Positions 4,241-18,870 of a stretch of DNA of 64,000 bases are shown piece after piece. The stretch lies in IMG/VR virus record IMGVR_UViG_2568526411_000004; one strand, given 5' to 3'. The position numbers and the translations under genes were made by a program. Source of the DNA: a virus (taxonomy: Duplodnaviria; Heunggongvirae; Uroviricota; Caudoviricetes). Positions within the stretch are counted from its first letter, which is position 1. Every line of letters begins with the position of its first letter. The notes below the pieces were generated by a model. The model was not told the origin of the DNA and did no database searches. It worked only from the letters and a program-made list of their open reading frames with translations.

Positions 4241-4365
4241 TTATTAAAAATAATTTGTTTATTTGTTTAAATTTTGATCAAACAAATAAACATGCTTTAA
4301 AATGCAATAAAACGCCCTTTTTAGAGCGTTTTATTCAAAATGGTATGATCTATCGACTATAGTGC

Positions 4366-4692
4366 TTAAATCACTGTTAAGCGTATGTTATGCACGTTTA
4401 ACGCAATGCTACGGTACTGCATAAAGTTAAGCATGTATCTATTAATAAAATCATTCATAAATGCGCTTTTAGATACCTTTAAAACTTTTTTGTGCTTAGT
4501 GATAGCTGTTAAGTATTCAATGCGCTTGTTTTGTCTCTCTATGCACTTATCAGCGTGAACTATTGCGCGTTGCTGTATTAAATGCATGTATGCGCGTTTA
4601 CCTTCTAATACACTATTAAGCAATTCACTATCATTGTTTAATTCATTAGCAAGTTTAGCTATAGCATTTTTACGCATAATTTGAGTTGTCAT
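4366..4692 (-). CDS. hypothetical protein
   Basis: 108-aa ORF with an AGAAGG SD upstream. Confidence 0.5.
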   Translation of the reverse strand: MTTQIMRKNAIAKLANELNNDSELLNSVLEGKRAYMHLIQQRAIVHADKCIERQNKRIEYLTAITKHKKVLKVSKSAFMNDFINRYMLNFMQYRSIALNVHNIRLTVI

Positions 4693-4771
4693 GATAAAAC
4701 CTTCTATTTAGTTAAGTTGTGTTTGTCGGTTTGTTTCGAGCTAACCGACTGAGTGAATAATTGCACCTAAA

Positions 4772-4790
4772 TTGACTTGTTGCAAGTTAA
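4772..4790. promoter_or_regulatory. imperfect copy of the TTGACTTGT-T-GCAAGTTAA palindrome
   Basis: Lies upstream of the 4692 gene start. Confidence 0.45.
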
Positions 4791-5090
4791 TTTTGAACGC
4801 AAAATAATCACTCGTTAAAAATAAAAACGAAATTAGAGTCAAAATCAATGAAAACCTTATGGCACAAGGGTTGGCGCGATTTTTGGGTGATCACGTCCGA
4901 GGCAATTCCTATCAAAAATTGGATTGCCGTGTGGCTCTTCCACGGCGGCACTGAGGCGAGTGGCAGCTCCTTATGCGAGCGTGCGGGTGTTTTAGGAAAA
5001 TTCTATAGTTCAGCCGAGGCAACGCCGTTTTTCACTCTTGGATGGGGCGTGGATCTGCTTTGGATTGTCCTAGGCATGTTGCGTACGATA

Positions 5091-5117
5091 ATAAAAAACC
5101 GCTCAAGTTAGAGCGGT
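5091..5117 (-). terminator. rho-independent terminator (ACCGCTC-aagtta-GAGCGGT)
   Basis: Stem-loop followed by a T-run on the minus strand, downstream of the 5215 gene. Confidence 0.65.
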
Positions 5118-5214
5118 GCAGTCATGTCCATGTTGAGTGAGCATCAGCGCTGTTCTACACAGCATGAAGGCGGTCAATTAAGCTCAACCGCGTTCACTTA
5201 ATCAATGTGTCAGC

Positions 5215-5712
5215 TTAATTGTGCAAGTCGTCGTATGTTGCTTTGCTTCCATCAGAAAATTCTATTACACAATTTTCTAGGTCCACTATCATGCTATCAG
5301 TGCGCTTTAGCTCACTTCGATAATGTTGGATTTCTTCGTCATCTTCTTCATCTATGAGGTCAATTACATGTGCGCAGTAGTCTGTAATGTCGTTAATCTC
5401 TGCAACTGCTGCATATAGCGCTTTGTGTTGTTCGTGATTAAGATGTGATAAATCCATTGTGCTGAAGTATTCGTAGAAGTCCTTAATTGTCAAACCGTCG
5501 ACATACGTATAGTTTTTAGCTGATAGGTTTTTATTATCCGCATCTTCTTTAGAGTGAGAGCTATAGCGAAAAACACCCTCGTCATTCTTGTGACTTGGAC
5601 CGCACAGAGGAGATACGTTGTGTAGATATAAAGATATTATGCACGGTCGATCGAATCCTATAATTACTGCGTCATATCCTGATCTCGCTATACGGTGTGC
5701 TGTAACTTTCAT
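5215..5712 (-). CDS. hypothetical acidic protein (C-terminal DEEDDEE run)
   Basis: 165 aa with an ATG start; the conserved leader lies upstream. Confidence 0.55.
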   Translation of the reverse strand: MKVTAHRIARSGYDAVIIGFDRPCIISLYLHNVSPLCGPSHKNDEGVFRYSSHSKEDADNKNLSAKNYTYVDGLTIKDFYEYFSTMDLSHLNHEQHKALYAAVAEINDITDYCAHVIDLIDEEDDEEIQHYRSELKRTDSMIVDLENCVIEFSDGSKATYDDLHN

Positions 5713-5719
5713 TTTTTAA

Positions 5720-5753
5720 CTCTATGTTGCTTGTTTCGATAGAGCTATTTTCT
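5720..5753 (-). promoter_or_regulatory. conserved early leader GAAAATAGCTCTATCGAAACAAGCAACATAGAG (minus-strand sense)
   Basis: Belongs to the ATCGAAACAA leader family and is preceded by TCCACAAAC...ATTGAGAAAAT promoter-like sequence. Confidence 0.6.
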
Positions 5754-5910
5754 CAATGCGTTTGTGGATATATAACACATGGCTTAGGCGTTGTGTGCAT
5801 GTTGCCTATGGGGGGTGGCCGCGCCGTGGATGTGCCGAGGATTGGCCTCATGAAAAATGCCTAGGCCTGTGCCTAAGTGAAAATTGGATTGGCCTAGGAA
5901 ACAATATGAT

Positions 5911-5939
5911 CAAAAGAAAACCGCTCATACAGAGCGGTT
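5911..5939 (-). terminator. rho-independent terminator (AACCGCTC-ataca-GAGCGGTT)
   Basis: Stem-loop plus TTTTCTTTTG on the minus strand, downstream of the 5947 gene. Confidence 0.65.
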
Positions 5940-5946
5940 CAGAGTG

Positions 5947-6312
5947 TTAGCGTTTAAAGTTTAAGTGTGTCAATTCTTGCATTTGCTCACACATAAATTG
6001 TTGAGCTTCGATATAAGTCGTAAATATTACTTGTCGAGTTATCTTTGAGACTTCATACACAAAGTCATCGGTCTGTGAAAGGTTATACGCTTCAAGTTTT
6101 TCATGCTTATCTGCGTCCACTTTGCAAACGTTTACTAAATAATGAATCTCTTCTTCATTTTCATGCACAGACAAATGAAGCGCATAAGCATCAATTCCAG
6201 AGTTCAACAAGATGATTTGACCGTAATGTACGTTTAACACATCTAAATCAGCTATATGCGAAAAGGTCCAGTCGCTTTTCTTTACTTCATCGTTGCTGTC
6301 ATAAGTTTTCAT
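5947..6312 (-). CDS. hypothetical protein
   Basis: The track start at 6372 is a TTG lying upstream of the promoter and leader. The ATG at 6312 (MKTYDSNDE) directly follows the conserved leader. Confidence 0.55.
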   Translation of the reverse strand: MKTYDSNDEVKKSDWTFSHIADLDVLNVHYGQIILLNSGIDAYALHLSVHENEEEIHYLVNVCKVDADKHEKLEAYNLSQTDDFVYEVSKITRQVIFTTYIEAQQFMCEQMQELTHLNFKR

Positions 6313-6349
6313 AGCTCTATCTCTATGTTGTTTCGATAGAGCTATTTTC
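6313..6349 (-). promoter_or_regulatory. conserved early leader ...AAAATAGCTCTATCGAAACAACATAGAGATAGAGCT-ATG
   Basis: Preceded by AAATTGTTTGTCCAAAATCAGCTTGTGAAAAT, which reads as a -35 TTGTTT, a 17-nt spacer and an extended -10 TGTGAAAAT. Confidence 0.6.
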
Positions 6350-6405
6350 ACAAGCTGATTTTGGACAAACAATTTAAGGACTTGGAGACGTTAAGTCTTT
6401 TTTGC

Positions 6406-6699
6406 TCATATCTTCAACTCCGCTGTGTCGGTTTGTTTTGGATAACAATTGCAGCCTATCGACAATTCCTCACTGACACCGCCCCACTCTGCCACTATAT
6501 CTAGGTCGCTGTGATTGTAGGCTTGATTGTGACCGCAAGGTTTCCATGTATTTAAACCGCGTGGGCGTAGCTTACCTCTAAACATCTTCCAAACAGAGCC
6601 TTTTATAGCGAATGTGCCATCACCGTTTACTTCGTGAACTGTAACTCGGCTACCGTTGCGTGTGCGGTAGTCGCCTGCTTTAGTTATTAGTTGAGTCAT
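6406..6699 (-). CDS. hypothetical protein
   Basis: ATG at 6699 (MTQLITKAGDY) downstream of an ATATCGAAACGAACAA leader; the track start at 6783 is an upstream extension. Confidence 0.5.
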   Translation of the reverse strand: MTQLITKAGDYRTRNGSRVTVHEVNGDGTFAIKGSVWKMFRGKLRPRGLNTWKPCGHNQAYNHSDLDIVAEWGGVSEELSIGCNCYPKQTDTAELKI

Positions 6700-6707
6700 G
6701 ATTAAAC

Positions 6708-6735
6708 CCGTTGTTCGTTTCGATATGTATTGTGA
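6708..6735 (-). promoter_or_regulatory. leader-family element CATATCGAAACGAACAACGGG
   Basis: Variant of the ATCGAAACAA leader. Confidence 0.45.
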
Positions 6736-7240
6736 TATTTCATAGCTGGATATGCACCGCATGGCATAGGCAATATTCATCAATCGCCTATTCCGATTAA
6801 CCGCATGTTTGTGCCGAGGACATGCCAGTTTTTGCGTGGAACATTCCGAGGATTCGCCGTGATATTTTGAATTGGCAGCTGTGAGGAATAGCCTCGGCGC
6901 GAAAATTTTTGTTCCACTTGCCTGTGTGTATGTGTGATTTTTTAGGAAATATTTAGTTCAGGAAATTTGTTGGGATTTTTCATTTTCTCTATAAAGATTT
7001 TAAGTCATGACCATTCCGATGTGAAAACGCTAGAAGAAGTGAAAATGCCCCCCCTTCCCCCCCATAGCCTAAAAAGACATTTACATGAGAAGGAAGGGAG
7101 AAGGCATCTACTTCATCCGCGCCACATCGGAATGCGAACATTCCGTAGTTGGTAAACGCCGACCCTAAGCAAAACGCACCCCTATCGAAAAGCAAGATGG
7201 GTCCACTGCCAGCAGTGAAAACTATCTTGGGTGCAATTGT

Positions 7241-7258
7241 AGTCAGTGCTTACTGATT
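7241..7258. promoter_or_regulatory. degenerate palindrome AGTCAGT-GCTT-ACTGATT
   Basis: Same half-site family, one mismatch. Confidence 0.35.
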
Positions 7259-7721
7259 TTTCAAGTGTAAGAAGTTTGGCTGAAACAATTTTTTAACAAC
7301 AGAATCCACCGCTCCCTTCGGTCGCTCCATGCACATTGCACAACTCCTCTCTCTATGTGTTATTACTCTATAACCGCCTATACACATACTTCCTATTGTT
7401 CTTACTCTCCGTGTATGATGAATTGTCCTTCTAGCTATACTTAGTGAAATCCTTATTGTGTATAGTGTTCAGTATGTACTTATCATTATCCGTGTAGTTG
7501 TTAGAGTTTTTGTCTGTATTGATTGATTGTTTTTAAGATCGTTTGCAATTGTTCTATTGTTTATCAGTTTGATTATTTAGATAGCATTATGAAAATATGC
7601 TGTTTGAGTTAAATTTGCTGTTCTATGGCTTAGTTGTAGATTAGTTGGATTGTTTGTCAGTAAGTTATCTATTCTTTAGTACGTTTTGGAATTTAGTTGT
7701 CTGGTGTTTGAATAGTAAGTC

Positions 7722-7779
7722 CGTATTATCATATTACCGTGTGTATGTATGGTCGTATGGTAATACGGTAATATGATAT
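7722..7779. other. lox-like inverted-repeat site A (TATCATATTACCGT arms around GTGTATGTATGGTCGTATG)
   Basis: About 80% identical over ~55 bp to site B at 56203-56254, which sits next to the tyrosine recombinase gene. Confidence 0.45.
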
Positions 7780-8124
7780 TTCAGCCTAGAGATAAATTGC
7801 CTCATTCTGTGCCTGATAATTTGTTATAGCGTTCAGGTAAAAAATACAGCCTTAAAGTAAATTTGCTATTTGCGCATAGAATCGTTTTAGAGAGCGTTTT
7901 GCTTGTGTTTAGTATGATTCATCATCTTAGTGATAAAAGCGTCTCTAACGCGCGTTTATAAGCGATTATAAGCGGTTTAAGTGAGAGTGTTTGCTTATCT
8001 GGTTTTAGCATGGTTCGGCGGGTAAGTAATGAATTAGTTACAAGTCAGTTTATTTGTATAAAAATACTTATAAATCAATGATGTATAATAATATCTCTAT
8101 AACTGTCTGTTTTTGCTTATTTTA

Positions 8125-8165
8125 GATAAAAAAGAGCCAGCTCTAAAGAGGGGCGTAGAGCTGGC
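8125..8165 (-). terminator. rho-independent terminator (GCCAGCTCTA...AGAGCTGGC)
   Basis: Stem-loop followed by TCTTTTTTATC on the minus strand. Confidence 0.55.
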
Positions 8166-8430
8166 AAAAAGGTGACTTGTGAGACTTTTTTCTCTATCAA
8201 TACACTCGAATATTCTATCTAAAGAGCTTCGTTGTCTTGATGTGAGTATTGTATAAATACCGAGTAGGATTGAGAAGGGGAGGCGTTTATATCGCCTGTC
8301 GTGTTTCCTATTAAACTCATTATAATGATTGCATGTAACGTGAATTGAGTACGGCGTATGTTGACCGCATTAATTGTTCTTGGAGCGATAGGGCTCATTT
8401 ATTTGATGCTCAAAGCCATGAAGTGATTAG

Positions 8431-8474
8431 ACAAAAAGCCCTGAGCATTCAGGGCTATTATTTAGTTATTTTCT
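8431..8474. terminator. bidirectional terminator (AGCCCTGA-gcat-TCAGGGCT)
   Basis: The hairpin is flanked by T-runs on both strands, downstream of the 8546 gene. Confidence 0.65.
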
Positions 8475-8545
8475 AATTGCGCAAATATCTGCTCAAAAAT
8501 GATCGATTTCATAAAAAAAGTGCAAATATTTGCTCAATATTGGTC

Positions 8546-9088
8546 TTAATAGTTTCGGTAAACCTTTCCTTCAGCTACAAGATAATCACTAATTAAAGCG
8601 TCGCGCCCGTAACGTTCATAGTCGAAATAACCTTGAATGTCCTCTGGTATTTCCAAAGCAGAACATTCATCAATTAAATAGCGTCCAAAATCATCGTCAT
8701 TTTCGTAGTCACACACGTAACGATCTTCGTGCCACTCTTTAACGTTTGACCAATCAGCATAGTTGCCTTCAACTAATGCAGCGTATGTGCCAACTTCTTT
8801 AACTTCATCAAGATCAAGGCTTACTAAAAACTCAATTAAAGTTTCAAGCATTTTGAATGATGAGACTTTTATCTCTTCGTTGGCCCAAGTGTCTTCTAGC
8901 TGCCAAAACTCTATCTCTACATCGCCTAACTCATCTATGAAGTCGTCGTATTCATCAAAGTAAAGGTTAAAACCGTGTTGATGCGTAAAGCTGAAGCCTT
9001 CTAAGCGAAAACGTTTCTTGTTATCAGGGTTAGAAAACTTCGCTAAAAACTGCTCTATAGTCACTTGATCGTTAGTTTCGTAAGTCAT
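8546..9088 (-). CDS. hypothetical highly acidic protein
   Basis: 180 aa, rich in D/E (DEYDDFIDELGD, YENDDDFG); ATG start with the conserved promoter and leader upstream. Confidence 0.6.
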   Translation of the reverse strand: MTYETNDQVTIEQFLAKFSNPDNKKRFRLEGFSFTHQHGFNLYFDEYDDFIDELGDVEIEFWQLEDTWANEEIKVSSFKMLETLIEFLVSLDLDEVKEVGTYAALVEGNYADWSNVKEWHEDRYVCDYENDDDFGRYLIDECSALEIPEDIQGYFDYERYGRDALISDYLVAEGKVYRNY

Positions 9089-9092
9089 TTTA

Positions 9093-9125
9093 AAAATCTC
9101 TTTGCTTGTTTCGATGAAGTAATTC
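9093..9125 (-). promoter_or_regulatory. conserved early leader TTCATCGAAACAAGCAAAGAGATTTTTAAA-ATG
   Basis: Preceded by AAATTGTTTGTCCAAAAACCGATTGAGAGAAT (a -35, a 17-nt spacer and an extended -10). Confidence 0.6.
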
Positions 9126-9174
9126 TCTCAATCGGTTTTTGGACAAACAATTTGTGGCTTAGGCGTTGTTATCT

Positions 9175-9205
9175 ATAAAGAAAAACCGCTCACGATGGAG
9201 CGGTT
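9175..9205 (-). terminator. rho-independent terminator (AACCGCTC-acgatg-GAGCGGTT)
   Basis: Same stem sequence as the terminators at 5091 and 5911. Confidence 0.65.
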
Positions 9206-9223
9206 AAATTAGTGGACTTTAAT

Positions 9224-9601
9224 TTAAAGACCATGATCTGTGGTCGTAAAATCACTGTAATAAAGAGCGTTAGTGGCGGTGTCTAAATGTATTTTGGAAG
9301 TCATTTCAAAATATTCTTCACTCTCTTCGCAAACTAATTGATTATATTCGGAGTAACCGTCGGCAATAAGAGCAACCGCCTTTATTACAGCATCTATGAA
9401 CTCTTGCTTGTATTCATCTAGGCGCATAGTGGTTTGTAGCTTTAAACCCGTTTCTGCACTTGTGTAGGTGTTCATGTGCTTATCTGGTTCGCCAATGTAT
9501 ATCTCAGCGAGATAAGGTTGATCTGCGGATATTATTGCGGTCTGAGCCTTATTAGAGAAAAGCTCGTTTACTGCGCGGTATATGGTGACGATTGGTTGCA
9601 T
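9224..9601 (-). CDS. hypothetical protein
   Basis: The ATG at 9601 (MQPIVTIYRAV) follows the leader immediately; the track start at 9670 lies upstream of the leader. Confidence 0.55.
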   Translation of the reverse strand: MQPIVTIYRAVNELFSNKAQTAIISADQPYLAEIYIGEPDKHMNTYTSAETGLKLQTTMRLDEYKQEFIDAVIKAVALIADGYSEYNQLVCEESEEYFEMTSKIHLDTATNALYYSDFTTTDHGL

Positions 9602-9610
9602 TATGTTTAA

Positions 9611-9640
9611 CTCTATTTGTTTCGATAGAGTAATTTTCAC
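9611..9640 (-). promoter_or_regulatory. conserved early leader GTGAAAATTACTCTATCGAAACAAATAGAGTTAAACATA-ATG
   Basis: CTCTAT...ATAGAG inverted repeat around CGAAACAA. Confidence 0.6.
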
Positions 9641-9795
9641 AATTGAAAATAGGGGAGACAAAGGCAACATACGTTGCCTTGTGTGTTAGCCATACTGCAT
9701 GCATTGCATGCAAACGCTGATATTTACATTGGTGCTGATTGAGTTTGCTGTGCATCCAAGTAATGCAACGCACGCCAAGATTATTACTAATGGCT

Positions 9796-10014
9796 TCATG
9801 CCTTCTTGCCTCTTCCCACAAACCAATCAACCGCCTTACAGAGCATTTCGTCTTTGTGCCAATCTTCAATCACACGAGTTTCATCTCGGTCATGTGAGAA
9901 GAGCGGGCCACAGTAGTTGTTCCATGTCATGTATACATATCGCCCATCAAGTAAGCGCAATCTAAAAGTTGGAACCAGGCACACGAAACCGCCGGGCATT
10001 CTTCTGCAAGTCAT
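9796..10014 (-). CDS. small hypothetical protein
   Basis: ATGA overlap with the stop codon of the 10011-10352 gene. Confidence 0.35.
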   Translation of the reverse strand: MTCRRMPGGFVCLVPTFRLRLLDGRYVYMTWNNYCGPLFSHDRDETRVIEDWHKDEMLCKAVDWFVGRGKKA

Positions 10015-10352
10015 GCTGCTTTCTGCTCCGCTTTTTGAATCAATGTGCGGAGGCGCCAGATATACGTTTGCGAATAGCCATTGTCCGTCTTGATCGGTAT
10101 TGTTTTGAATCCGCGTGCCTCAGCTTGCGCAACTAGCTTTTTAGCTCTCTCTAAGCTGCCAATATGCTCTAACGCTGTCTTTGGCTGTGGTAACTTGCCA
10201 CTCTTGCGTAGCCTTGCAATGTTTGAGTTGATCGTTCCTACAGTTCTGTTCAGCTCCTTTGCTATTTCAGCAATTGGAGTGTTATTAGAATGTAAGGTGA
10301 TTAGCTTATTAATTTCACCTGTTGTCCAATAGCGAACCTTTGCAATGCTCAT
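10011..10352 (-). CDS. HTH DNA-binding protein
   Basis: The NTPIAEIAKELNRTVGTINSNIARLRKSG segment looks like a helix-turn-helix. Confidence 0.5.
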   Translation of the reverse strand: MSIAKVRYWTTGEINKLITLHSNNTPIAEIAKELNRTVGTINSNIARLRKSGKLPQPKTALEHIGSLERAKKLVAQAEARGFKTIPIKTDNGYSQTYIWRLRTLIQKAEQKAA

Positions 10353-10382
10353 GGCTTGCCCTCCAATGCATCAAAGCGAACT

Positions 10383-11018
10383 CTAATCTTCATTAATGAC
10401 CTCCTGAGATTTGCCAGCCGTTTTAACCACAATGGAATACACAGGCTCAAAATACTCTCGCGTTCCCTCTTCATCTCCCCATTTGTACCCACCGTAATGC
10501 AAAGCTTCCACTGTTGATTGCGGCATTTTCTTAGGAATTGCGACATACCCATCTGGAATTTGTTTTGCATTATTAATCTGTGCATACAAATCTTGTCTTT
10601 CATCAAGCAATTCAGTGATTCGATCTTGAAGTTGTCCAACTTTAAAATCTTTTGATCTGTTTAATCTTTTTTCTTCAGCCAGTTCATCTAACAAGGAATC
10701 AATTTGTCGATAAAGGTTTTTCCAGTATTTATTAGGGTTTTCGTCATGATCTTTAAGAACCTCCCTAATTAATTGTTCTATATCTTCATCTGACATAAAC
10801 TCCTTGTCACCGTTCGCTTTTTGCTCTGTAAGCTGTCTGTTAATCTCAGCGTCCAGCAAATCACGGGTTGATGGGTGGCCAACCTTCTCACCTACCAGAT
10901 ACCGCAAGCGTTCATTTTCAGCCTGCAACTCAATCAACTCGCACGGCGTACCATGTCGACCGTCATGAAAGCCTGCTTTGTACGCTGCCTCTTTTATTTC
11001 TATTTGTTCATTCATCAC
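10383..11018 (-). CDS. hypothetical coiled-coil protein
   Basis: 211-aa ORF with charged heptad-like segments. Confidence 0.5.
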   Translation of the reverse strand: MMNEQIEIKEAAYKAGFHDGRHGTPCELIELQAENERLRYLVGEKVGHPSTRDLLDAEINRQLTEQKANGDKEFMSDEDIEQLIREVLKDHDENPNKYWKNLYRQIDSLLDELAEEKRLNRSKDFKVGQLQDRITELLDERQDLYAQINNAKQIPDGYVAIPKKMPQSTVEALHYGGYKWGDEEGTREYFEPVYSIVVKTAGKSQEVINED

Positions 11019-11455
11019 ATTAAGCCTTCTACAAAATCTCTAACTTCTTCAAAAACGTCAGTTCTAATGGAGTGTTCTATGCTTACGTTTTCTTCATACA
11101 GCCTTTGCTCTTCATTGAAGCCGTCTCTGCAAAACTTGAGAACCTTCTCTAGTGCCGACATCGCTGAACTAGGAATGGGTTGAGCGTCTATACTTTCCAC
11201 GTCAACAACAATGATGTTTTGCACGTCGTAATCTCTTAGTACTTCATCCAGAAGCGATACAGTCAAATCACTTGAACCTGCAAGTATGCTAGAAAAAATC
11301 TCTATACGATCTTCATTGGATAGCGTGTTAAGCTTCTCTTCATCGCGAAAGAACGCCATGAAGTCATCACGATTAAATGTGTCAGTCTGCATTTGTTTAA
11401 CTCTTGAAAACTTTCTTAAATTAATGATATTGAAAGTTTTTTGGATATTGCGCAT
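11015..11455 (-). CDS. hypothetical protein
   Basis: 146-aa ORF whose start/stop overlaps the neighbouring gene. Confidence 0.45.
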   Translation of the reverse strand: MRNIQKTFNIINLRKFSRVKQMQTDTFNRDDFMAFFRDEEKLNTLSNEDRIEIFSSILAGSSDLTVSLLDEVLRDYDVQNIIVVDVESIDAQPIPSSAMSALEKVLKFCRDGFNEEQRLYEENVSIEHSIRTDVFEEVRDFVEGLM

Positions 11456-11491
11456 TGGGGGTTAAGTTGCCAATGCGCAAAGCTTTATGCC

Positions 11492-12118
11492 TTAACCTGT
11501 GTACGGCTCAAGTTGCACATCGAAAACTTTCATTTCGAAATCCAACTCATCTGGAGTAAAGAAGTGTTCACTGTAAAGCCGGGCAGCTTCCGCCTGTGTT
11601 TCAGCCTTAATTTGAACTATCGCTGACGCTTTAAATTGCCACGTTGGTATTTTTGGCTCTTCAAGCGTAACGGGTCTGTTTGCAAACAATTTCATGTCAT
11701 GCGATGCGTTCGAGTCATCCAAAAACTTAACTACAGTTCGGTCTTCGCTGAGTTCGACAGTTTGGAATTGATCTACTATTGCCCAGTTATGCCCATCGCC
11801 ATCAATGAGTTGAATAAGCCTAATTTCAGTTTCAGGACTAGGGCCTAGCAAATTTTTACTCCACTTGATCGTCTCTGAGCCAACGGTGCCATAATCTGCC
11901 TGTTTTAATGCCTGCCAAAGTTTCATTATTGGTCCAACCTTTGTAATGCTCACTTCATCGTATATGCCTGAGTAAAAACCTTCCTCAAGAACAATCTTAA
12001 TCGGTCCTTCCGCGTAGGTTTCATCTTCCAAATACTCACGCGCCTGTTGAAGCGTGTCGACGGTCTTTTCGCCACAACGTTGTGTGTCTTTTTCAATCCA
12101 TTTAACTAAATATGGCAT
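11492..12118 (-). CDS. hypothetical protein
   Basis: 208-aa ORF. Confidence 0.5.
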   Translation of the reverse strand: MPYLVKWIEKDTQRCGEKTVDTLQQAREYLEDETYAEGPIKIVLEEGFYSGIYDEVSITKVGPIMKLWQALKQADYGTVGSETIKWSKNLLGPSPETEIRLIQLIDGDGHNWAIVDQFQTVELSEDRTVVKFLDDSNASHDMKLFANRPVTLEEPKIPTWQFKASAIVQIKAETQAEAARLYSEHFFTPDELDFEMKVFDVQLEPYTG

Positions 12119-12194
12119 TTATCCTTCCACCTCTATCGCTTCAGGATCTATCGTCCCGTCTAAATTTGTGTTGCTTGTTTCTGTGCCTAAATCA

Positions 12195-12671
12195 TTAATC
12201 TGCTTCATTGCTCATTACCTTTTCTGCAATGCTTTTCTTCAATACCTTGCGGGCTTGTCTCATTGCGTATTTAGCTCTACTGTCACAATGATGGTTCGCT
12301 AAATAGCGGTTATCGGTTAATTTCGTATGACCTTTAACGTGTCGACATCTGAGCTTTAGTTCATACATTTTGGCGGTGTCTAATATGTGATTTAGAACAA
12401 CTGCAATGTCAGGACGAACCTTGCACTTACCGCTAAGGCAGAAGAGAACACCCTCGTTGTCTACTTGAATTAAAACCTCATCACCTTTTGAGATAAGCCC
12501 GGCATTGATAGACGCCTGCAAAGAGTTAGCTACGCCTTTAAATTCCGCCTCGTAGCTGTCTTTAACAACGCCTTTAATAATGTTCCCACCCGCACGTTTG
12601 CCTCTGTCTGACGCGCACCAGTATCCAAACCCAGCGGCGCCAGTTTTGTGACAAAGCGAGGCATCAGTCAT
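12195..12671 (-). CDS. rnh: RNase H (RNase HI-like)
   Basis: MTDASLCHKTGAAGFGYW resembles the RNase HI N-terminus (FTDGSC.GNPG); HVKGHTKLTDNRYLANHHCDSRA resembles VKGHAGHPENERCDELA. The start is set at the ATG at 12671. Confidence 0.6.
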   Translation of the reverse strand: MTDASLCHKTGAAGFGYWCASDRGKRAGGNIIKGVVKDSYEAEFKGVANSLQASINAGLISKGDEVLIQVDNEGVLFCLSGKCKVRPDIAVVLNHILDTAKMYELKLRCRHVKGHTKLTDNRYLANHHCDSRAKYAMRQARKVLKKSIAEKVMSNEAD

Positions 12672-13200
12672 TAATGTCACTAGCATAAGAGTGGTCCAAC
12701 TCTTCAAAAACAAGGTCGTCTAACTGCTCTTCTTTGAATCCAAAGTTATTAACAAGGCATTGACGAGCGGTTGCTTCATTTTTGAATATGCAAATTTGCT
12801 TTGAATCATCCAAAATGTATTCAAGACCGTTAATTGATACGCCTTCAATATGTCGACCAACACGAACAGGTGGCGCAACTTTAAATAATGGATCTGCGCC
12901 AATGAATACTTCATCAGGAATGTTGTTCCAGTTACGACGAAGAATGTCGAACTCACCTTCGTTCCAATAGTTCAAAAATTCCATTGCGTCATCGGTGCCA
13001 TCCACATTGTCACTTAATATGTATTGGATAACAGCAAGAGCCGGGTCGTTAGTGCGCTCTTTTATTTCGACGATTAGATTTTCTTTGGCGGACTTAAACT
13101 CTTCCTCAATGATTGCGTGATCTTCGAGTGGTTGACTGCCAATGTTTTCATGTGCGCGAGTGGCTGATTCAAACGCATATACAAGGTCAATTAGGCTCAT
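12664..13200 (-). CDS. hypothetical acidic protein
   Basis: 178-aa ORF. Confidence 0.5.
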   Translation of the reverse strand: MSLIDLVYAFESATRAHENIGSQPLEDHAIIEEEFKSAKENLIVEIKERTNDPALAVIQYILSDNVDGTDDAMEFLNYWNEGEFDILRRNWNNIPDEVFIGADPLFKVAPPVRVGRHIEGVSINGLEYILDDSKQICIFKNEATARQCLVNNFGFKEEQLDDLVFEELDHSYASDIND

Positions 13201-13793
13201 ACCGCTTCCTCCTCGCGTTTTTCAGCTATGCATTCTTCTAAGTGTTGAATTGCACTTACTTTTGAATCAAAAGGCCCTTGCCAACAATCATTGAAATGAA
13301 TGTCCCATTCGACCACGCCATGTTCTACAAATCTTTGAAGCTGAACCCGACCGTAAAATGGCACATCATGCGCCCACCAAATTTCGTTATCGTCGGTGCC
13401 AAATTCGATCTTAGAGTTTTGCGCCACTGCTTCAGCTTTATAGACGCCTTCAGCGTGTTTAATTAGATTTATTACAGGAGTTCCTTTTGGAAACCACGTT
13501 TGCCCAATCATGCAATCGTTTTCCAGCGTTAAAGCCTCCACGATTGGAACTGGGCCAGCTTTCAATCGCATTATTACGTCAATAACATTTTGCGAATCTT
13601 CGTCAAACTCAATCCACCCTTTGTCGTAAACTCCAAAATGGTATTGTTCGTTTTTTAAATCATTTGCCACTTGCGAATTAACAACTTCAAATCCTGTTTT
13701 TGATTTGACAAACTCTAAAAAACTTACTGTCGTGTCGTTATGTAATTTTTTTAGAGATGAAAGCACGCTATATAGCTGATAAGAATGTGACAT
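13197..13793 (-). CDS. hypothetical protein
   Basis: 198-aa ORF with an ATCGAAACATACAGG leader-like element upstream. Confidence 0.5.
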   Translation of the reverse strand: MSHSYQLYSVLSSLKKLHNDTTVSFLEFVKSKTGFEVVNSQVANDLKNEQYHFGVYDKGWIEFDEDSQNVIDVIMRLKAGPVPIVEALTLENDCMIGQTWFPKGTPVINLIKHAEGVYKAEAVAQNSKIEFGTDDNEIWWAHDVPFYGRVQLQRFVEHGVVEWDIHFNDCWQGPFDSKVSAIQHLEECIAEKREEEAV

Positions 13794-13863
13794 TTTTCGT
13801 TATCCAGTAGTTAAGTTAGGAGACGGGCTGTACATAAGCACAGCCTGTATGTTTCGATATGGA

Positions 13864-15066
13864 TTAGAAATTAACTACACGTTCGTCTTTGTTAAGGTAG
13901 CTGAAGGTCGGACTTGCCTGAACGGTCACAACCACGTCATGCTCCTTGTCAGTCAAGGTAAAGACACGCGTTTTAGGGTCAAACTCACACTTGACGTCAT
14001 TTGGTTTAACAATGCGGTGATATGGCTCAAGCTCAATAAATTTATCTTCAGCCATAAAGCCGATGCACTGTTTAGCATCGCCGTTTTCGTCTTCCCAAAG
14101 TTTGCCATCGTCGGTTTTTCGGAAACCATTAGGTCGAATCATTAAACGGAACTCAAATGTATCGTCTGTCATCATTCGTTCGATGTAGTCCGCATCAAAG
14201 TAAGTGAAGTCAAATGAATCCGAAACGTCATAACCTTTGTAGGTTGCTTCTTTTTGAAGGCGAATATCATCATAAGAAATGGTAGGTTTAATATTTAAAA
14301 ACTTGCCTAGATCGCGGACTGAAATGTTTTGACCTTCTGATTTATTAATTTCCTTAATTAAGATGGTCAACATATCCATGTTGAACATTGAGAAACGCCC
14401 TACGTATTCAAGAATTTCGTCGATGCGATCTTTGTTTATTAGTACGTCGTTTGCATATTCGCGAATGGTTGACTCGCTGATGCTGCCAAAGTGTATGTTG
14501 TAATAAACACGACCCGGACGGTTATGGAAGTACTCATAGCGCGAGCTGCGAGAATCCGCATTCATAGTGAGAATGAAAAGTGTGTGCATTGGGTACATGC
14601 CATCAAGAAGTGTTAGCATGTCATTAACTTGTTCTGGCTTGGTGTAAACCTTGTCGAACTCATCAATGAAAACAATTTTTTGTTGGTTAATTTTTTGAAG
14701 GAAGCCTTTGTAGTCATCACCGACATAGGCTTCACTTTGTAAAATGCAAATACCGCCACTTTTCACAAAATCAACGCATAGCTTTTTAGCTAATAGAGTT
14801 TTACCTGTACCCTTAAAACCTTCAAGCATGATAGTTGTGGGTATTTCTGTGCGCTCATTGAAGGTTTCCATGATGCGGTCTTGATGTTGGTAGGCGTTAC
14901 CATACGCTTTCGGAATTAATGTAAGCGGGTTGGTGATTTGAAGGTAGAAACCGAGCTTGTCATGAAAACATAAGCGGTAAAAACCAGCAGGCAAGCTATC
15001 AATAGCGACGCCACTTACATCTGGAGCTAAGTGATAAGTGTCGTTTTGGCGAAGATATTGTGTCAT
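13864..15066 (-). CDS. AAA+ ATPase
   Basis: Walker A GFKGTGKT, Walker B IVFIDEFDK, sensor 1 TMN and arginine NRPGR are present. The N- and C-terminal domains are unassigned. Confidence 0.7.
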   Translation of the reverse strand: MTQYLRQNDTYHLAPDVSGVAIDSLPAGFYRLCFHDKLGFYLQITNPLTLIPKAYGNAYQHQDRIMETFNERTEIPTTIMLEGFKGTGKTLLAKKLCVDFVKSGGICILQSEAYVGDDYKGFLQKINQQKIVFIDEFDKVYTKPEQVNDMLTLLDGMYPMHTLFILTMNADSRSSRYEYFHNRPGRVYYNIHFGSISESTIREYANDVLINKDRIDEILEYVGRFSMFNMDMLTILIKEINKSEGQNISVRDLGKFLNIKPTISYDDIRLQKEATYKGYDVSDSFDFTYFDADYIERMMTDDTFEFRLMIRPNGFRKTDDGKLWEDENGDAKQCIGFMAEDKFIELEPYHRIVKPNDVKCEFDPKTRVFTLTDKEHDVVVTVQASPTFSYLNKDERVVNF

Positions 15067-15132
15067 GGTTGCGACTCTCTGTTAAGTTAAATGTATGATA
15101 GATAAATAATTTTGGGGTTAAATGCTGGCGTC

Positions 15133-15540
15133 TCACTTTGCCAGCTTTAATTCCTCGACCACATGTTTGATTTGCTCGCATGCATATTCGCTTTGACCTT
15201 CAACCGCATGACGTAGGTGAGTGAATGCTTCCATTACTTCAGCCATTCGTTTGCGGTTTTCTCCGCGCAAGTGTCCTTGCAGTGCAAAAAGCTCTTCTGA
15301 AAGACGTTTCAAATCGCTCGAATCGATTAAATTTCCTTTGATTTCGCCTAAGTAGCCTTCAATCGCGTCTTTATCGATTACTTCGTCTTCTAAGTCTTCA
15401 ACCCGCTCAATAAGCTTTTGTTGAGTTGCGAGGCATAAGCATCCGTTAAGACGAAACTCTTCACGCGGAGTCATTGCAGAATAAATAATATGAGAGTCAT
15501 TAAAATCACTAAATAGTGACTGATCTATACATATGTTCAT
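15133..15540 (-). CDS. hypothetical protein
   Basis: 135-aa ORF; a palindromic operator lies upstream at 15598. Confidence 0.5.
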   Translation of the reverse strand: MNICIDQSLFSDFNDSHIIYSAMTPREEFRLNGCLCLATQQKLIERVEDLEDEVIDKDAIEGYLGEIKGNLIDSSDLKRLSEELFALQGHLRGENRKRMAEVMEAFTHLRHAVEGQSEYACEQIKHVVEELKLAK

Positions 15541-15597
15541 GCGCTTATCTCTTAATACGGTGAGATAAATATATAAAATACATCGCGGATTATAAAC

Positions 15598-15611
15598 AGT
15601 CAGTACTGACT
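15598..15611. promoter_or_regulatory. palindromic operator AGTCAGTACTGACT followed, in the minus-strand sense, by TTTATAAT
   Basis: Perfect palindrome. Confidence 0.65.
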
Positions 15612-15751
15612 GATCAATTGGAATTGTGATTATTTATAAAAAAATGCGTTTTAAGCGCTTTTAGATAAAAAGGGTGTAATTTATTAACCGTGACGAACAA
15701 ACGCGATATACGAGAAAATACGCGCATTAAAAAGGGCAATTTAATTGCCCT

Positions 15752-16141
15752 TTACCATGCATTCTTTGTGTTTGTGACCATTTTCTTTGGCGCTTCGACT
15801 TTAGAGGTTGTTATAGGGTTCTTTCTTTGAACGCCCTCTACATTTAAAAAGTCAAAACTTACGCGCCACTCAAGACCCGGATTGGCACTATCGCTCGTTT
15901 CAACTACCGTTGCTGTTTTGGTGTTTATTTTGGTGATGCGAACTCGTCGATTGACGCCCTTTCGGGAATCAACAAAAGTTGCATATCGCCCAACTTCAAT
16001 ACTGTAATCTATACGAGATTCTATTTCTTGCTTTACCCCTTCTTGAAGTTGGAAAAGGGCCTCTGTAGATAATTTCTTCAAAACACTTAAATTCATAATT
16101 GGCACCCGAATTTGAGGAAGGCGAACCCTCCTAATCATCAC
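15752..16141 (-). CDS. hypothetical protein
   Basis: 129-aa ORF. Confidence 0.45.
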   Translation of the reverse strand: MMIRRVRLPQIRVPIMNLSVLKKLSTEALFQLQEGVKQEIESRIDYSIEVGRYATFVDSRKGVNRRVRITKINTKTATVVETSDSANPGLEWRVSFDFLNVEGVQRKNPITTSKVEAPKKMVTNTKNAW

Positions 16142-16144
16142 TGA

Positions 16145-17098
16145 TTAAAGCTCTGGAAATAATTCGCTTTTGATCTTCATCAAAAGAAGAGAGTTTGGAT
16201 TAGGCACTAAGCGACCCTGTTCATCTTTCAAGGCAATTTTGAGCATCGGTAACATTTGCATCATCTGACCGCTCTGTGCGCTTGCAGTACCAGGAGAGTA
16301 AGGCTTTGCAAGAAGATTTGAATACAAGTTACCCGTTTTCTTTGTTGTGATATAACCGTCTTTCAACAAAACGCCAAAAGTACGATGCATAACAACATTT
16401 AATTCACCGCCATTCTTCAACCATGTGAAGAGTTGAACGATTTTTTCAGCAACCTTCTTTTGAGTCGTAATAGACGAACCTGAACCCGGACGCGCATTAA
16501 GAATGTTTAACAATTCTTGCTGTCTAGCTTTTAAAGCTTCTGGATCTTTTTCAAGTAATTCAGCATCTTCAACTTCAAGTAGAAGGTGGTCATAAGCATC
16601 GTCGCCTAATCGAGACAACAAAACAGCCGATACTTTGCTATTTTGATATGTTGTTCGATAAGTAGACGGTGAAGCTTCGCGCTGATTCTCTTGATTTTTA
16701 GCGGCTTCAGTCTCTTTTTTAGTCTTTTTAGACTTCTTTTCGACCTTCTTCTCTTCAGTGGAAACTTCTGTAACCGCTAAAGATAAGTCGAGTGCGGATG
16801 CATCAAAATCAGTATCTTCAATCAGACCTTCGAGAGTATCTTGTGGTTCAGTCGCTACTTGTTCAGTTTTAACTTCTGTTTGTGTGGCAACCTCTTCAAC
16901 TAAAGATGCATCTAATTGAAGATCTTCAATGGATAAAGCAGCGTCGTCTATGCTTGCTTCGGTCGTTTGAGCTGTAGAACCTTGACCATCAAGAACATTG
17001 ATTAAATCAGTTAAATCAGTTGTTTCATCAAAAAGCTGTTCAAGAAAAACTTCATCTTGTTGAATGTTTGCTTGAGCTGTCATGTTTACCTCATTCAT
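16145..17098 (-). CDS. hypothetical protein with ~120-aa highly acidic N-terminal region and Lys-rich linker
   Basis: 317 aa. The ATG at 17098 follows the conserved promoter and leader (TTTTTTGTCCAA...CATAAT...ATCGAAACAA). Confidence 0.6.
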   Translation of the reverse strand: MNEVNMTAQANIQQDEVFLEQLFDETTDLTDLINVLDGQGSTAQTTEASIDDAALSIEDLQLDASLVEEVATQTEVKTEQVATEPQDTLEGLIEDTDFDASALDLSLAVTEVSTEEKKVEKKSKKTKKETEAAKNQENQREASPSTYRTTYQNSKVSAVLLSRLGDDAYDHLLLEVEDAELLEKDPEALKARQQELLNILNARPGSGSSITTQKKVAEKIVQLFTWLKNGGELNVVMHRTFGVLLKDGYITTKKTGNLYSNLLAKPYSPGTASAQSGQMMQMLPMLKIALKDEQGRLVPNPNSLLLMKIKSELFPEL

Positions 17099-17125
17099 TG
17101 CGTTGTTTCGATGAATGAATTATGA
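17099..17125 (-). promoter_or_regulatory. conserved early leader TTCATTCATCGAAACAACGCA-ATG
   Basis: Leader-family member. Confidence 0.55.
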
Positions 17126-17201
17126 CTAACCGCCGTTGGACAAAAAATAGATTTTGATGGCGAGCTGCAAAGGTCGCCTTGAGCAAGATTTGGTCAACTT
17201 A

Positions 17202-17912
17202 CTAAGCGCAATTCAACTCTTCGTTTTTAAGTGGAGCATCATATGAAACGGGCTTAAACGTATTACAGCATTCGTAAATGCTTGTTGAGCCTACTGGATC
17301 TGAGATCACTAGCGTTCCATCTTGACGTTGCATGAAATTACCCGTGTGGAGGTCGGGAAATGCATCGGAATTTTGCTTCAAAAATTTAGCCATTGTTAAA
17401 AAACTCATGCTAAGCGATGGGTGATCTTTTAAATGGTCATCAAACGCCAAATCCATTAAGCAAGTGATATTTCGCTCATGGCGGTCATCAATAAAGCTAC
17501 AACCATTTAGAATGCGTAATTTTTTACAAATACGATTCACCAATGAGCGATTAGGCCCCTTAACAGGTAGCTTATGAAGTCGTTCAACCTCATACAAGTA
17601 CATCGGTACAGGCATGGTTTTGGGTTGAGTAATAGCAGTCTTGCTAATGTTTTTGCCAACAATAAATTCACCCACTTTGCCAAAGTCCCGGATAGGCCGA
17701 GTGAAATGATTACTCTCGCGAGATAGAGAGTAGGGGCCAAACAATGACTCATAACCCATAGCGTCAATACTTAGTTTTAAAACCGTATCTGAATTACCGC
17801 TTTCGTAGACACCTGAGAACTGTCCACGCGCAATCAATTTTTTCCCTTTGAGTGCGCTATGAGTGTTTCTAACCGTCTTCACGCTTTGATCGTTTAAAAT
17901 AAAAATGTTCAT
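17202..17912 (-). CDS. protein-kinase-like fold protein
   Basis: Gly-rich loop ARGQFSGVY, VLKL lysine, catalytic-loop-like DLHTGNFMQRQDG and ISDPVG (DFG-like). Confidence 0.45.
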   Translation of the reverse strand: MNIFILNDQSVKTVRNTHSALKGKKLIARGQFSGVYESGNSDTVLKLSIDAMGYESLFGPYSLSRESNHFTRPIRDFGKVGEFIVGKNISKTAITQPKTMPVPMYLYEVERLHKLPVKGPNRSLVNRICKKLRILNGCSFIDDRHERNITCLMDLAFDDHLKDHPSLSMSFLTMAKFLKQNSDAFPDLHTGNFMQRQDGTLVISDPVGSTSIYECCNTFKPVSYDAPLKNEELNCA

Positions 17913-18000
17913 ATTCTCTTAGACTTAACAAATTCAATCTATTAGATACTTTTTTAGTTGGAGACTAAACGCGAGGGGGTTATTTGCCAGTCTGGAAATT

Positions 18001-18252
18001 TCAAAATTGATGATCTAAATAATCTGCATATGCAACTGATTTTCTACTCTTTTCCATTAATAGCAGAATTATTTTACTACGCAAACTTATTGGAATAGGG
18101 CGTTCTTCCGCCATCCATTGTCTTACTCTGCTTGAGTCCACATCAATCGCGCGAGCCAATTCTGTTTGCCATTGAGTGCCGTAAAGTATCTCACCTGCCT
18201 GTTTTAACTCTTCGGGCGACATGCGAGAGGCTTCAGAATCAAGGTTATCCAT
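18001..18252 (-). CDS. Cro/YdaS-like HTH regulator
   Basis: TQWQTELARAIDVDSSRVRQWMAEERPIP matches an XRE/Cro-type HTH. The ATG at 18252 is used; the track start is a TTG. Confidence 0.55.
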   Translation of the reverse strand: MDNLDSEASRMSPEELKQAGEILYGTQWQTELARAIDVDSSRVRQWMAEERPIPISLRSKIILLLMEKSRKSVAYADYLDHQF

Positions 18253-18440
18253 GTTCAATCCTATGATTTGTCAGCCGATAAAGAAAAAGCAATTAGATTT
18301 TTCCAATTGCCTTTCCCCCAACTTAACTAAGTTATCTCATCGTTTTCCTATCTTTCGATAGGCTCGAAACAAACAAACAAGATAAAGAGAGTTTTACAAC
18401 TCATTGGATAAATATAACCGCATGAATCGCTAGGGTCAAG

Positions 18441-18716: not shown

Positions 18717-18870
18717 TTCTGATAAGAGGCTTTTAAATTCTTCTTCGCCTACAAGGTGTTTAAATATAATCTTTAAGCGTCATAATCACAGGTTAAATTT
18801 CAAGGACTTGGACATATATTACAATGATTCCTTCGTGACTTGAAATTTAACTTGTGGCTATTGGGCCAGA

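Follow-up and report, generated by a model that had tools for sequence, protein, structure and literature searches.

A family of sigma70-type promoter-leader units and a candidate antisense small RNA in an Acinetobacter baumannii phage-plasmid

We analysed a repeated promoter-leader unit in a 64,000-nucleotide (nt) stretch of viral DNA (IMG/VR record IMGVR_UViG_2568526411_000004; hereafter 'the window', meaning the whole of this stretch) that belongs to an Acinetobacter baumannii phage-plasmid of about 107–113 kb. Judged from promoter geometry, at least six genes, the anti-restriction gene ardA among them, would be transcribed from look-alike sigma70-type promoters to give messages which all begin with AUCGAAAC, and a candidate small RNA encoded on the same element appears to be the antisense of this common leader. 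The model we favour, with a probability of roughly 0.55 for the whole of it, is that the units are early gene cassettes similar to those of the promoter-early stem-loops (PeSLs) of T4-type phages, that they are controlled together by the one antisense RNA, and that some of them carry an additional layer of control in cis.

In the favoured model, each cassette would comprise an intrinsic terminator, a sigma70-type promoter (often with an extended -10 element) and a short A/C-rich leader. Host RNA polymerase would start at the A of ATCGAAAC, as the geometry of the promoters implies, and the resulting leaders of 25–30 nt, predicted to be unstructured, would precede small and mostly acidic ORFan genes (orphan open reading frames) and ardA. 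The invariant UCGAAAC at +2 to +8, the A/C-rich stretch and the Shine-Dalgarno (SD) region would together form the target of the small RNA (18404–18283), whose predicted antisense copy of the complete consensus leader would allow pairing to cover the 5' end and SD of each early mRNA. The whole early set would be shut off in this way in an established plasmid-prophage or in a superinfecting relative, and would be expressed as a burst in a naive cell. In about one third of the units the positions from -9 to +2 are complementary to the unit's own SD region, and this second, cis-acting layer would leave read-in transcripts translationally silent, translation being reserved for transcripts from the proximal promoter. 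The conserved terminator-promoter-leader linkers coincide with the points at which cassettes have been replaced among relatives, as PeSLs do in T4-type phages. A more ambitious form of the proposal, to which we give slightly less than even odds, is that most early (anti-defence or establishment) genes have been given one 5'-terminal mRNA sequence controlled by one small RNA that is the antisense of the consensus leader, that lineage-specific pairs of seed and leader define RNA-based immunity groups, and that new cassettes join the regulon by recombining behind a resident linker. On the favoured model the arrangement would combine PeSL-like cassettes, cis control of the T4 gene e type and antisense-RNA immunity, all of them known.

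Positions 4700–18400 of the window are 100% identical to a set of 104–114 kb non-mobilizable A. baumannii plasmids annotated with an HK97-type capsid, portal, terminase, ParB, DEAD-box helicase, ArdA, ribonucleotide reductase and thymidylate synthase. The element is a phage-plasmid. Since these close plasmids are identical, divergent relatives were fetched through homologues of the proteins encoded by g5712 and g17083. A 109.7-kb IMG/VR contig (L122/L124/L178) has three strong copies of the unit, and in more distant Logan assemblies (L168, which is the same as L180, and L170, L174, L181 and L195) the element stands before many genes, with 9–13 sites per 20 kb. Plasmids of the p1OC068 type have one cassette with its element in common with the window and otherwise no such family. 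An exact-pattern scan of 185,579 species genomes (one per species) gave 41 single chance-like matches and none in Acinetobacter, viral and metagenome scans for the pattern returned the 109.7-kb relative only, and nothing relevant to the motif was found in a search of the literature.

The repeat unit is real and non-random, and it has six copies. The first-pass annotation, made from the letters of the window, had listed nine (seven, with weaker ones at 4692 and 18252). The pattern CTCTATCGAAACAA with up to two mismatches matches six times against 0.6 expected, a number reached in none of 100 shuffles, and the exact string ATCGAAACA occurs 10 times in the window, nine of them on the minus strand, as are all six promoter-leader copies. 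A position weight matrix (PWM) separates four strong copies (the A of ATCG at 5740, 6337, 9115 and 9626; scores 39–49) and one medium copy (17112; 25.4) from everything else, which scores 13 or less. To avoid circularity, an nhmmer profile was built on three distant relatives alone, with 20 sites. This profile recovers these five copies, a sixth at 6724, and a borderline seventh at 62143. The six stand as copies; the remaining three claimed by the first-pass annotation have only (A/C)TCGAAAC in common with the family, the one at 13793 reaching an E value of 5.9 and those at 4692 and 18252 not being found by the profile. Its consensus also required correction, as TTGWGARAAT is separated from CTCTATCG by 2 nt rather than 7, and the block AAATTGTTTGTCCAAAA is confined to two copies (6337 and 9115) with a partial match in 17112. 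The units, which we name after the predicted start, are as follows.

5710–5775, minus strand: promoter-leader unit of g5712 (the 5740 unit; PWM 48.9, E = 2.5e-3), with TG at 5755–5754, -10 GAAAAT at 5752–5747, predicted +1 A at 5740, ATCGAAACAA at 5740–5731, ATG at 5712, and inverted-repeat arms AGCTCTAT/ATAGAGTT within 5746–5718.
6310–6375, minus strand: promoter-leader unit of g6312 (the 6337 unit; PWM 39.5, E = 1e-4), with -35 TTGTTT at 6372–6367, -10 GAAAAT, predicted +1 at 6337, ATG at 6312, and 9-bp arms AGCTCTATC/GATAGAGCT within 6343–6313 (5' arm stretch AGCUCUAUC).
6697–6760, minus strand: promoter-leader unit of g6699 (the 6724 unit; E = 9e-4), with -10 CACAAT placed 4 nt before ATCGAAACG (6724–6716), and no hairpin.
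9086–9153, minus strand: promoter-leader unit of ardA (8546–9088; ArdA Pfam match 8.8e-12) (the 9115 unit; PWM 42.0, E = 0.014), with -35 TTGTTT at 9150–9145, TGaGAGAAT, predicted +1 at 9115, and no inverted repeat.
9599–9661, minus strand: promoter-leader unit of g9601 (the 9626 unit; PWM 39.4, E = 0.016), with -35 TTGTCT at 9661–9656, TGtGAAAAT, predicted +1 at 9626, and arms ACTCTAT/ATAGAGT within 9631–9610.
17081–17147, minus strand: promoter-leader unit of g17083 (the 17112 unit; PWM 25.4, E = 2e-5), with TTTTTT-17-CATAAT, predicted +1 at 17112, and differing arms CATTCAT/ATGAATG (17117–17092).
62126–62155, minus strand: borderline seventh copy TAAAAT-gaccat-ACCGAAACAAACAATGAG before the open reading frame (ORF) 61520–62119 (PWM 12.3, E = 0.34), outside the segment bracketed by IS26.

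Copies of IS26 lie at 1–820 and 22302–23121 of the window. That all copies of the unit fall between them, as the first-pass annotation had remarked, is true of the coordinates of the six firm copies, but the bracket is incidental because the backbone and the elements are also present in relatives showing no IS26 there; the bracketed segment is ordinary backbone, syntenic with these relatives. In a sister plasmid of the family, IS26 brackets msr(E)/mph(E). The IS26 copy at 1–820 abuts the 5' end of a DEAD/DEAH helicase gene (808–2565); compared with the p1OC068 version, this gene is shorter both in the window and in NZ_CP031445.

The genes downstream of the units are ardA and small ORFans, and the products behind the four strong copies have isoelectric points of 4.1–4.9. 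The g5712 product is an acidic ORFan of 165 amino acids without a match in Pfam, NCBIfam or PDB sequences, and its AlphaFold model (predicted local distance difference test score, pLDDT, 64.5) has no PDB fold match. The products of g6312 (121 amino acids) and g9601 (125 amino acids) are likewise acidic; that of g17083 (312 amino acids) is conserved across all lineages. We call these genes 'early' by inference from ardA and from gene position.

The assignment of the family as sigma70-type promoters, often of the extended -10 kind, with a conserved transcribed leader is well supported by sequence geometry, and this part of the first-pass annotation is borne out by the fixed spacing to the -10 element, the TG motif and T-34. 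Among 44 unique [AG]TCGAAAC sites from six related genomes, with sites in coding sequence counted too, 29 have an nAnnnT hexamer at a distance of exactly 6 nt upstream (in 27 as nAnnAT), compared with 0–7 at other offsets, and the hexamers themselves vary (GAAAAT, CATAAT, CACAAT, TATTAT, CAAAAT). In 26 non-redundant sites, positions +2 to +7 are invariant, with C at +8 in 25, A at +1 in 24, T favoured at -1 and -3, T at -34 in 25, and TTGnnn in about half. TG is found at -15/-14 in the 5740, 6337, 9115 and 9626 units. A simple consensus promoter scan made no calls on the family promoters, which match at 8 of 12 positions. T at -1 and A at +1, the seventh position after the -10 element, form the textbook context of a transcription start. 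Because of this context and the fixed 6-nt gap, the motif ATCGAAAC most plausibly represents positions +1 to +8 of the RNA. In long leaders, moreover, predicted 5'-terminal helices begin at the predicted +1 and enclose loops of varying length (AUACCG...CGGUAU at g4209 in the window; AUCGAAAC paired with GUUCGAUAA or GUUUUGAU in L168/L170/L174), which points to RNA rather than to a site for a protein dimer. Comparison of 6724–6734 with L166 (8461), L124 (12288) and L167 (9161) reveals that the window has lost 2 bp of the discriminator, CACAAT standing 4 instead of 6 nt from ATCG, a deletion which may have weakened or shifted the start.

Other promoter types were considered and rejected. A promoter for a phage single-subunit RNA polymerase, suggested by the resemblance of CTCTATCG to CACTATAG, has no such polymerase to match it, since the window's large ORFs encode PolIII alpha, NrdA, an SMC-like protein, CobT, RecA and a ligase, and the -10 elements vary as those of sigma70 promoters do. 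Sites like lambda nut/boxA or boxB, or like integron attC, were dropped; the 'GCTCT' upstream of +1 varies and no core-site pattern fits. A near-consensus promoter, TTGATC-17-TATAAT (15617–15589, within window 15499–15618), overlaps a palindrome, CAGTCAGTACTGACTG, with a related repeat 90 bp off; it has no ATCGAAAC leader, and the leader therefore marks a subset of promoters. A C-rich patch near -47 of the promoter family (GCCTAAGCCA) is explained by none of the models.

The best-supported candidate for the shared control element is an antisense small RNA, a proposal that rests on complementarity, synteny, co-occurrence and limited covariation. Its predicted locus, the inverted leader copy within it and two leaders that could pair with it are listed here.

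18405–18439, minus strand: predicted small RNA promoter, TTGACC (18439–18434), 17-nt spacer, TATATT (18416–18411); 10 of 12 consensus positions, conserved in L178.
18280–18404, minus strand: candidate antisense small RNA of about 120 nt, predicted +1 near 18404; fold z score -4.76, six compensatory pairs.
18363–18381, plus strand: inverted leader copy (the '18252 copy' of the first-pass annotation), CTCGAAACAAACAAACAAG continuing as ATAAAGAGAGTT; no properly spaced -10 element and no ORF behind it.
4727–4747, minus strand: hairpin CGGUU-AGCUCGAAACA-AACCG in the g4692 leader, presenting GCUCGAAACAAAC, the exact 13-nt complement of seed 1; not a promoter-type copy, the predicted +1 being about 17 nt upstream; rank 3 of 42,648 windows for pairing with the small RNA, duplex figure -38.0.
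13804–13858, minus strand: g13793 leader, with ATCGAAACA at 13858–13850, a stem-loop, then CUCCUAACUUAACUACUGG at 13822–13804, complementary to seed 2 (duplex figure -30.7); E = 5.9, no proper -10 element at 6 nt, not a member of the promoter family.

From its 5' end, the predicted RNA has a hairpin, the unpaired seed 1 CUUGUUUGUUUGUUUCGAG (18381–18363), a second hairpin CCUAUC-GAAA-GAUAGG (18362–18347), seed 2 AACUUAGUUAAGUU (18333–18320), and a terminator hairpin with a U-tract (18314–18280). The seed includes GUUUCGAG. The reverse complement of nt 11–42, CTCGAAACAAACAAACAAGATAAAGAGAGTT, is the complete leader from +2 to its SD-like end. A gene for a helix-turn-helix (HTH) protein (18252–18001) comes after the unit. 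Exact complementarity between the small RNA and the leaders extends over 7–16 nt from +2 in every leader and coincides with the invariant stretch, and the window leaders are among the top 20 or so of 42,648 windows for pairing. The leaders of g13793, g4692 and g4209 contain CUAACUUAACUA, with which the other unpaired stretch of the RNA, seed 2, pairs.

The locus is syntenic across lineages: in window/L178, L182, L180/L181 and L196, the slot after the gene for an RNase_T exonuclease is occupied by a predicted promoter, 70–140 nt of non-coding sequence and a predicted terminator, which is strong in the last three. In L178 the seed and hairpin are identical to those of the window while the flanks differ, and the promoter is conserved; the promoters of L182, L180/L181 and L196 are TTGACT/TAAATT, TTGACA/TATTTT and a TATAAAT-like TATAAT, respectively. 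The seed of each lineage matches its own leaders (the reverse complement of the L180 seed is CTCGAAACGCACAACGCACCAACCAAAAAGGT, the leader GTCGAAACGCACAACGCG), and the 5' end of the L196 RNA pairs with CAAACGAAAGGT at the SD. Cognate duplexes are the stronger ones in L180/L181 (-25.5 versus -17.5 to -19.8) and in L196 (-23.4 versus -11 to -16), with a margin of 6–10 kcal/mol. The four small RNA types fold better than shuffled sequences, with z scores of -4.8, -3.0, -4.4 and -2.3; in an alignment of the three that can be aligned, the seed is unpaired and six base pairs have undergone double compensatory change. The locus occurs solely in 27 window-type plasmids, NZ_CP026705 among them, all 27 of which have the leaders, and is unannotated in nearly all of them. 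Five p1OC068-type plasmids are without it, and the one examined has no leader family save one imported cassette; at that slot these plasmids have TTGAAC-CCTATCAATAGATAGG-TTAATAT and no antisense leader. Rfam gave no match at the gathering score in the window, nor at E ≤ 1 in 4000–19000, so the small RNA is not a member of c4 or another curated family.

Two further features adjoin the locus. An unannotated 91-codon ORF (18441–18716, minus strand) with a hydrophobic stretch has its stop directly before the -35 element of the small RNA promoter, and a comparable small ORF lies ahead of the small RNA in L180 (4105–4404) and L182 (5988–6281), the products in all three being membrane-protein-like. 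The CCTATC/GATAGG arms recur in p1OC068-type plasmids as CCTATC-AATA-GATAGG (L002 23720–23750, L179 3925–3960), between the -35 and -10 elements of an HTH gene promoter, where the palindrome may be a protein operator. CTATC, a half-site resembling that of Cro, recurs in CCTATC-N4-GATAGG; a link between the two was rejected, as these arms are also present in p1OC068-type plasmids, which have no leader family.

The cis layer concerns an inverted repeat, CUCUAU...AUAGAG in the first-pass annotation, which had read it as an SD-sequestering hairpin. The repeat is present in four of the six units (5740, 6337, 9626 and 17112; not 9115 or 6724) and co-varies in relatives, but its 5' arm lies at -9 to +2, directly after the -10 hexamer and outside the promoter's own mRNA. 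Folded from +1, the leaders of 5740, 9115 and 9626 give 0.0 kcal/mol and no hairpin; with a start at least 6 nt further upstream, hairpins of -5.6 (5740), -12.6 (6337), -5.9 (9626) and -7.5 kcal/mol (17112) are predicted, the ardA leader remaining at 0.0 kcal/mol with either start. The predicted start and the hairpin are mutually exclusive, and the hairpin would be limited to read-through RNA because its 5' arm is untranscribed when the RNA starts at ATCG. At 27 non-redundant sites, pairing of -9 to +2 with the site's own SD region averages -4.75 kcal/mol, compared with -3.43 kcal/mol for the SD regions of other sites (permutation p = 1.8e-4), an effect restricted to left windows covering -12 to +4. 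Arms of -6 kcal/mol or better are found at 8 of the 27 sites versus 13% of mismatched pairs (p = 0.013), 19 being without such a hairpin, and the arm sequences differ by site (CTCTAT/ATAGAG, TGCTTTAT/ATAAAGCA, CATTCAT/ATGAATG, GACTCT/AGAGTT). In read-through RNA the predicted cost of opening the region from SD to AUG rises by 5–11 kcal/mol in four of the six window copies, from 0.9–3.9 to 6.2–14.3 kcal/mol. As for sources of such RNA, the terminator scan found none between g6699 and the 6337 promoter; terminators stand before 5740 and 9115, and a terminator-like hairpin before 9626 was read by eye and not called by the scan. An operator for a dimeric protein made by the arms was rejected, since their spacing varies (loops of 8–15 nt) and their sequences differ among copies. 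The hairpin appears to be real in a subset of units and would act, if at all, on read-through RNA.

There is a known precedent for such an arrangement. In the T4 genes e, soc, 49 and I-TevI the SD is sequestered by a helix whose 5' strand is encoded where the proximal promoter lies, and proximal transcripts alone are translated (PMC3014915, citing McPheeters et al., 1986). The units described here are alike in that the helix would sequester the SD/AUG region and the proximal promoter lies within the DNA of its 5' strand. They differ in that the T4 proximal promoters are late ones and serve a temporal logic, whereas here the promoters are of the sigma70 early type, the helix is found in about one third of units, and read-through is inferred.

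Several observations weigh against the favoured model. Start sites, small RNA and terminator of the small RNA are all predictions. There are four independent small RNA types, of which three can be aligned, and a preference for cognate leaders is seen in two of the four, the window-type RNA having no lineage specificity in duplex energy. Pairing between the L182 RNA and its two leaders is imperfect, duplex energies of some control leaders are as low as -19 to -20 kcal/mol, about 15 sites in coding regions pair with the small RNA as well as the short leaders do, and in the minimum free energy structure of the window RNA part of the seed is paired. As regards the cis layer, terminators stand before most units, and a strand test designed to distinguish RNA from DNA action of the arms did not separate the two (sense -4.75, antisense -4.74, p = 0.91). 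Lastly, the model leaves unexplained a CC at -27/-26 in 22–23 of the 26 non-redundant promoters (e.g. TCCA at 6362–6365 of the window). In L168-type relatives this CC sits within the loop of the upstream terminator.

The units also mark the places at which cassettes have been exchanged between relatives. Three intrinsic terminators in the window are relevant here.

5098–5117, minus strand: intrinsic terminator after g5712 (ACCGCTC..GAGCGGT and a T-tract), called by the terminator scan.
5918–5940, minus strand: intrinsic terminator after g6312, called by the terminator scan; alignment with L124 resumes here, at 5924.
9184–9205, minus strand: intrinsic terminator after g9601, called by the terminator scan; alignment with L124 resumes here, at 9211.

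Homology between the window and L124 stops at 9648 and resumes at 9211, with g9601 replaced by two other cassettes, and stops again at 6718, inside the motif, to resume at 5924, with g6699 and g6312 replaced by two small ORFs. These breakpoints place the joints at the promoter-leader and at the terminator. Window terminators of the form AACCGCTC-N5/6-GAGCGGTT stand after cassettes; in L168-type relatives the stem of the upstream terminator ends at -13, and in L168/L170 the stem-loop overlaps the -35 element and spacer. Gene content in the region is highly variable among lineages. The PeSLs of T4-type phages are conserved regulatory linkers (Arbiol et al., 2010, PMC2839356; Comeau et al., 2014, PMC4122927), and the units match this concept: both combine a terminator with a strong sigma70-like early promoter, both stand before ORFans of a hyperplastic region, their stem-loops can extend over the -35/-10 elements, and the breakpoints of insertions and replacements between relatives fall at the modules. 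PeSLs belong to T4-type phages, whereas the units described here belong to an HK97-fold Acinetobacter phage-plasmid, include an initial transcribed sequence of 8 invariant nt and are accompanied by a candidate gene for a matching antisense RNA. The units are an analogue of PeSLs and not members of that class, because the element is an HK97-fold phage-plasmid and not a T4-type myovirus.

These exchanges bear on an alternative that we regard as unlikely, in which no trans-acting factor exists, the leader is an optimal start and escape sequence combined with an unstructured translation enhancer, cassette recombination has homogenised it in a PeSL-like concerted evolution, and the inverted copy is a by-product. 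Replacement breakpoints at the elements, the lack of structure in the leaders, the ideal T-1/A+1 context and the precedent of PeSLs as conserved linkers of a similar kind would all fit, as would the movement of one cassette with its leader into the p1OC068 lineage, where it presumably works without the small RNA. However, the 8-mer is invariant while neighbouring positions and the -10 hexamers differ widely, which argues for selection on the 8-mer and not for gene conversion, and the homologous promoter of a sister lineage works with another sequence at +1. The inverted copies, for their part, lie within promoter-terminator units that are conserved, show compensatory changes and have seeds matched to the lineage.

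We consider it quite improbable that the conserved block from -4 to +10 (CTYT-ATCGAAAC-RA) is instead a DNA operator, of the asymmetric P1 C1 type, at which a phage-plasmid repressor blocks RNA polymerase at all early promoters, with the inverted copy near the HTH gene serving as the regulator's own operator. At many promoters a conserved stretch of about 14 bp spans +1, the motif is restricted by lineage, and other consensus promoters in the region do not have it, which makes it the mark of a regulon rather than a general promoter feature; the HTH gene adjoins the inverted copy, and a second contact could be made at the CC of -27/-26. Against this, orientation and position relative to the -10 element are absolutely fixed, all promoter sites being in the sense direction and exactly at +1, and second copies of the motif in long leaders are found at a variable distance of 24–31 nt. 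The inverted copy is a full leader, including the complement of the SD, and stands between a promoter and a terminator in four lineages of differing sequence; the RNA is present in L180, L181 and L182 without a called HTH gene downstream of it, and among the loci compared no regulator had the right pattern of presence and absence.

Very improbable is the reading of the first-pass annotation, that a CUCUAU...AUAGAG hairpin in the promoter's own mRNA sequesters the SD and is acted on by a RegA-like protein or an RNase: the repeat and its co-variation are real, and in 6337 the 3' arm covers AGAG and abuts the AUG, but the 5' arm is outside an RNA starting at ATCG, the copies have no alternative upstream promoter in common, the hairpin is missing from ardA and most other sites, and no evidence for a RegA-like repressor or an RNase site was found, with no RegA Pfam match among the 19 proteins scanned. 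T4 RegA is a protein that binds at the AUG (PMC3014915). It resembles the candidate RNA as one factor acting on the initiation regions of many early mRNAs, and differs in that the element conserved among the present units forms the message's 5' end.

For the favoured antisense model, the closest parallels lie in phage and plasmid immunity and in plasmid establishment. The c4 antisense RNA of P1/P7 was reportedly described by Citron and Schuster in 1990. The CI RNA of P4 provides another case of RNA-based phage-plasmid immunity (summarised in PMC4825925). Like these, the candidate would be a small structured RNA, encoded by the element, that pairs with early transcripts and turns early or lytic functions off, and the matching of seed and target could set immunity specificity. 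P4 CI and P1 c4 act at one or two sites in one operon and are processed from the target transcript; here, in contrast, many promoters would each give the same 5'-terminal target, and the candidate has its own predicted promoter and terminator, and no relationship to them was found in sequence or in Rfam. Conjugative plasmids express ardA and other leading-region genes transiently, in a 'zygotic' burst. Common to both settings would be an anti-restriction gene with a dedicated strong promoter used on entry and then silenced by a repressor which the element encodes. Zygotic expression involves protein repressors or single-stranded-DNA promoters, whereas here no conjugation genes were seen in the phage-plasmid and the candidate repressor is an RNA.

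Further features of the window were observed in the vicinity of the units. Between ardA and the 6724 promoter, about 1.5 kb (6900–8436) contains no convincing ORF and is 79% conserved in L124 (10574–12294); it has C/G homopolymer runs (around 7047–7063), an inverted repeat (7718–7787) and strong GC-skew shifts, and may represent an origin, a packaging site or a long non-coding RNA. The spacers ahead of three promoters (4800–5097, 5757–5917 and 6736–7000) are GC-rich and have the patches CCAATCCAATTT, TCCTCGGCACA and GCCTAWGCCATG..TATATCCA in common. Positions 5869–5932 match 64 nt of a lytic Acinetobacter phage, Phab24, at 100% identity; in the phage they fall inside an annotated hypothetical coding sequence. 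A palindrome, AATTGACTTGTTACAAGTCAATT (4217–4242 and 4770–4795), overlaps the -35 elements of the g4209 and g4692 promoters, with a weaker third copy in non-coding sequence at 8028–8050, and is likely to be a protein operator distinct from the leader motif. Further away, the RecA-like gene (40599–42158) has intein-splicing/HINT domains, and the product of the PolIII-alpha gene (45456–48911) has a C-terminal domain of the uracil-DNA-glycosylase superfamily.

The comparison with PeSLs extends the idea of recombination-prone regulatory linkers beyond T4-type phages. Phage-plasmids of this family, about 110 kb in size, are frequent in clinical A. baumannii, where they carry resistance genes, and the expression and subsequent silencing of ardA and small acidic proteins on entry bears on how they evade host restriction and defence, and on the mutual exclusion of relatives. 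If true, the small RNA model would offer a compact, testable case in which one RNA controls a whole regulon by way of a common 5' leader, and a handle with which to derepress or block establishment, and it would allow early anti-defence cassettes in related elements to be spotted by the leader alone.

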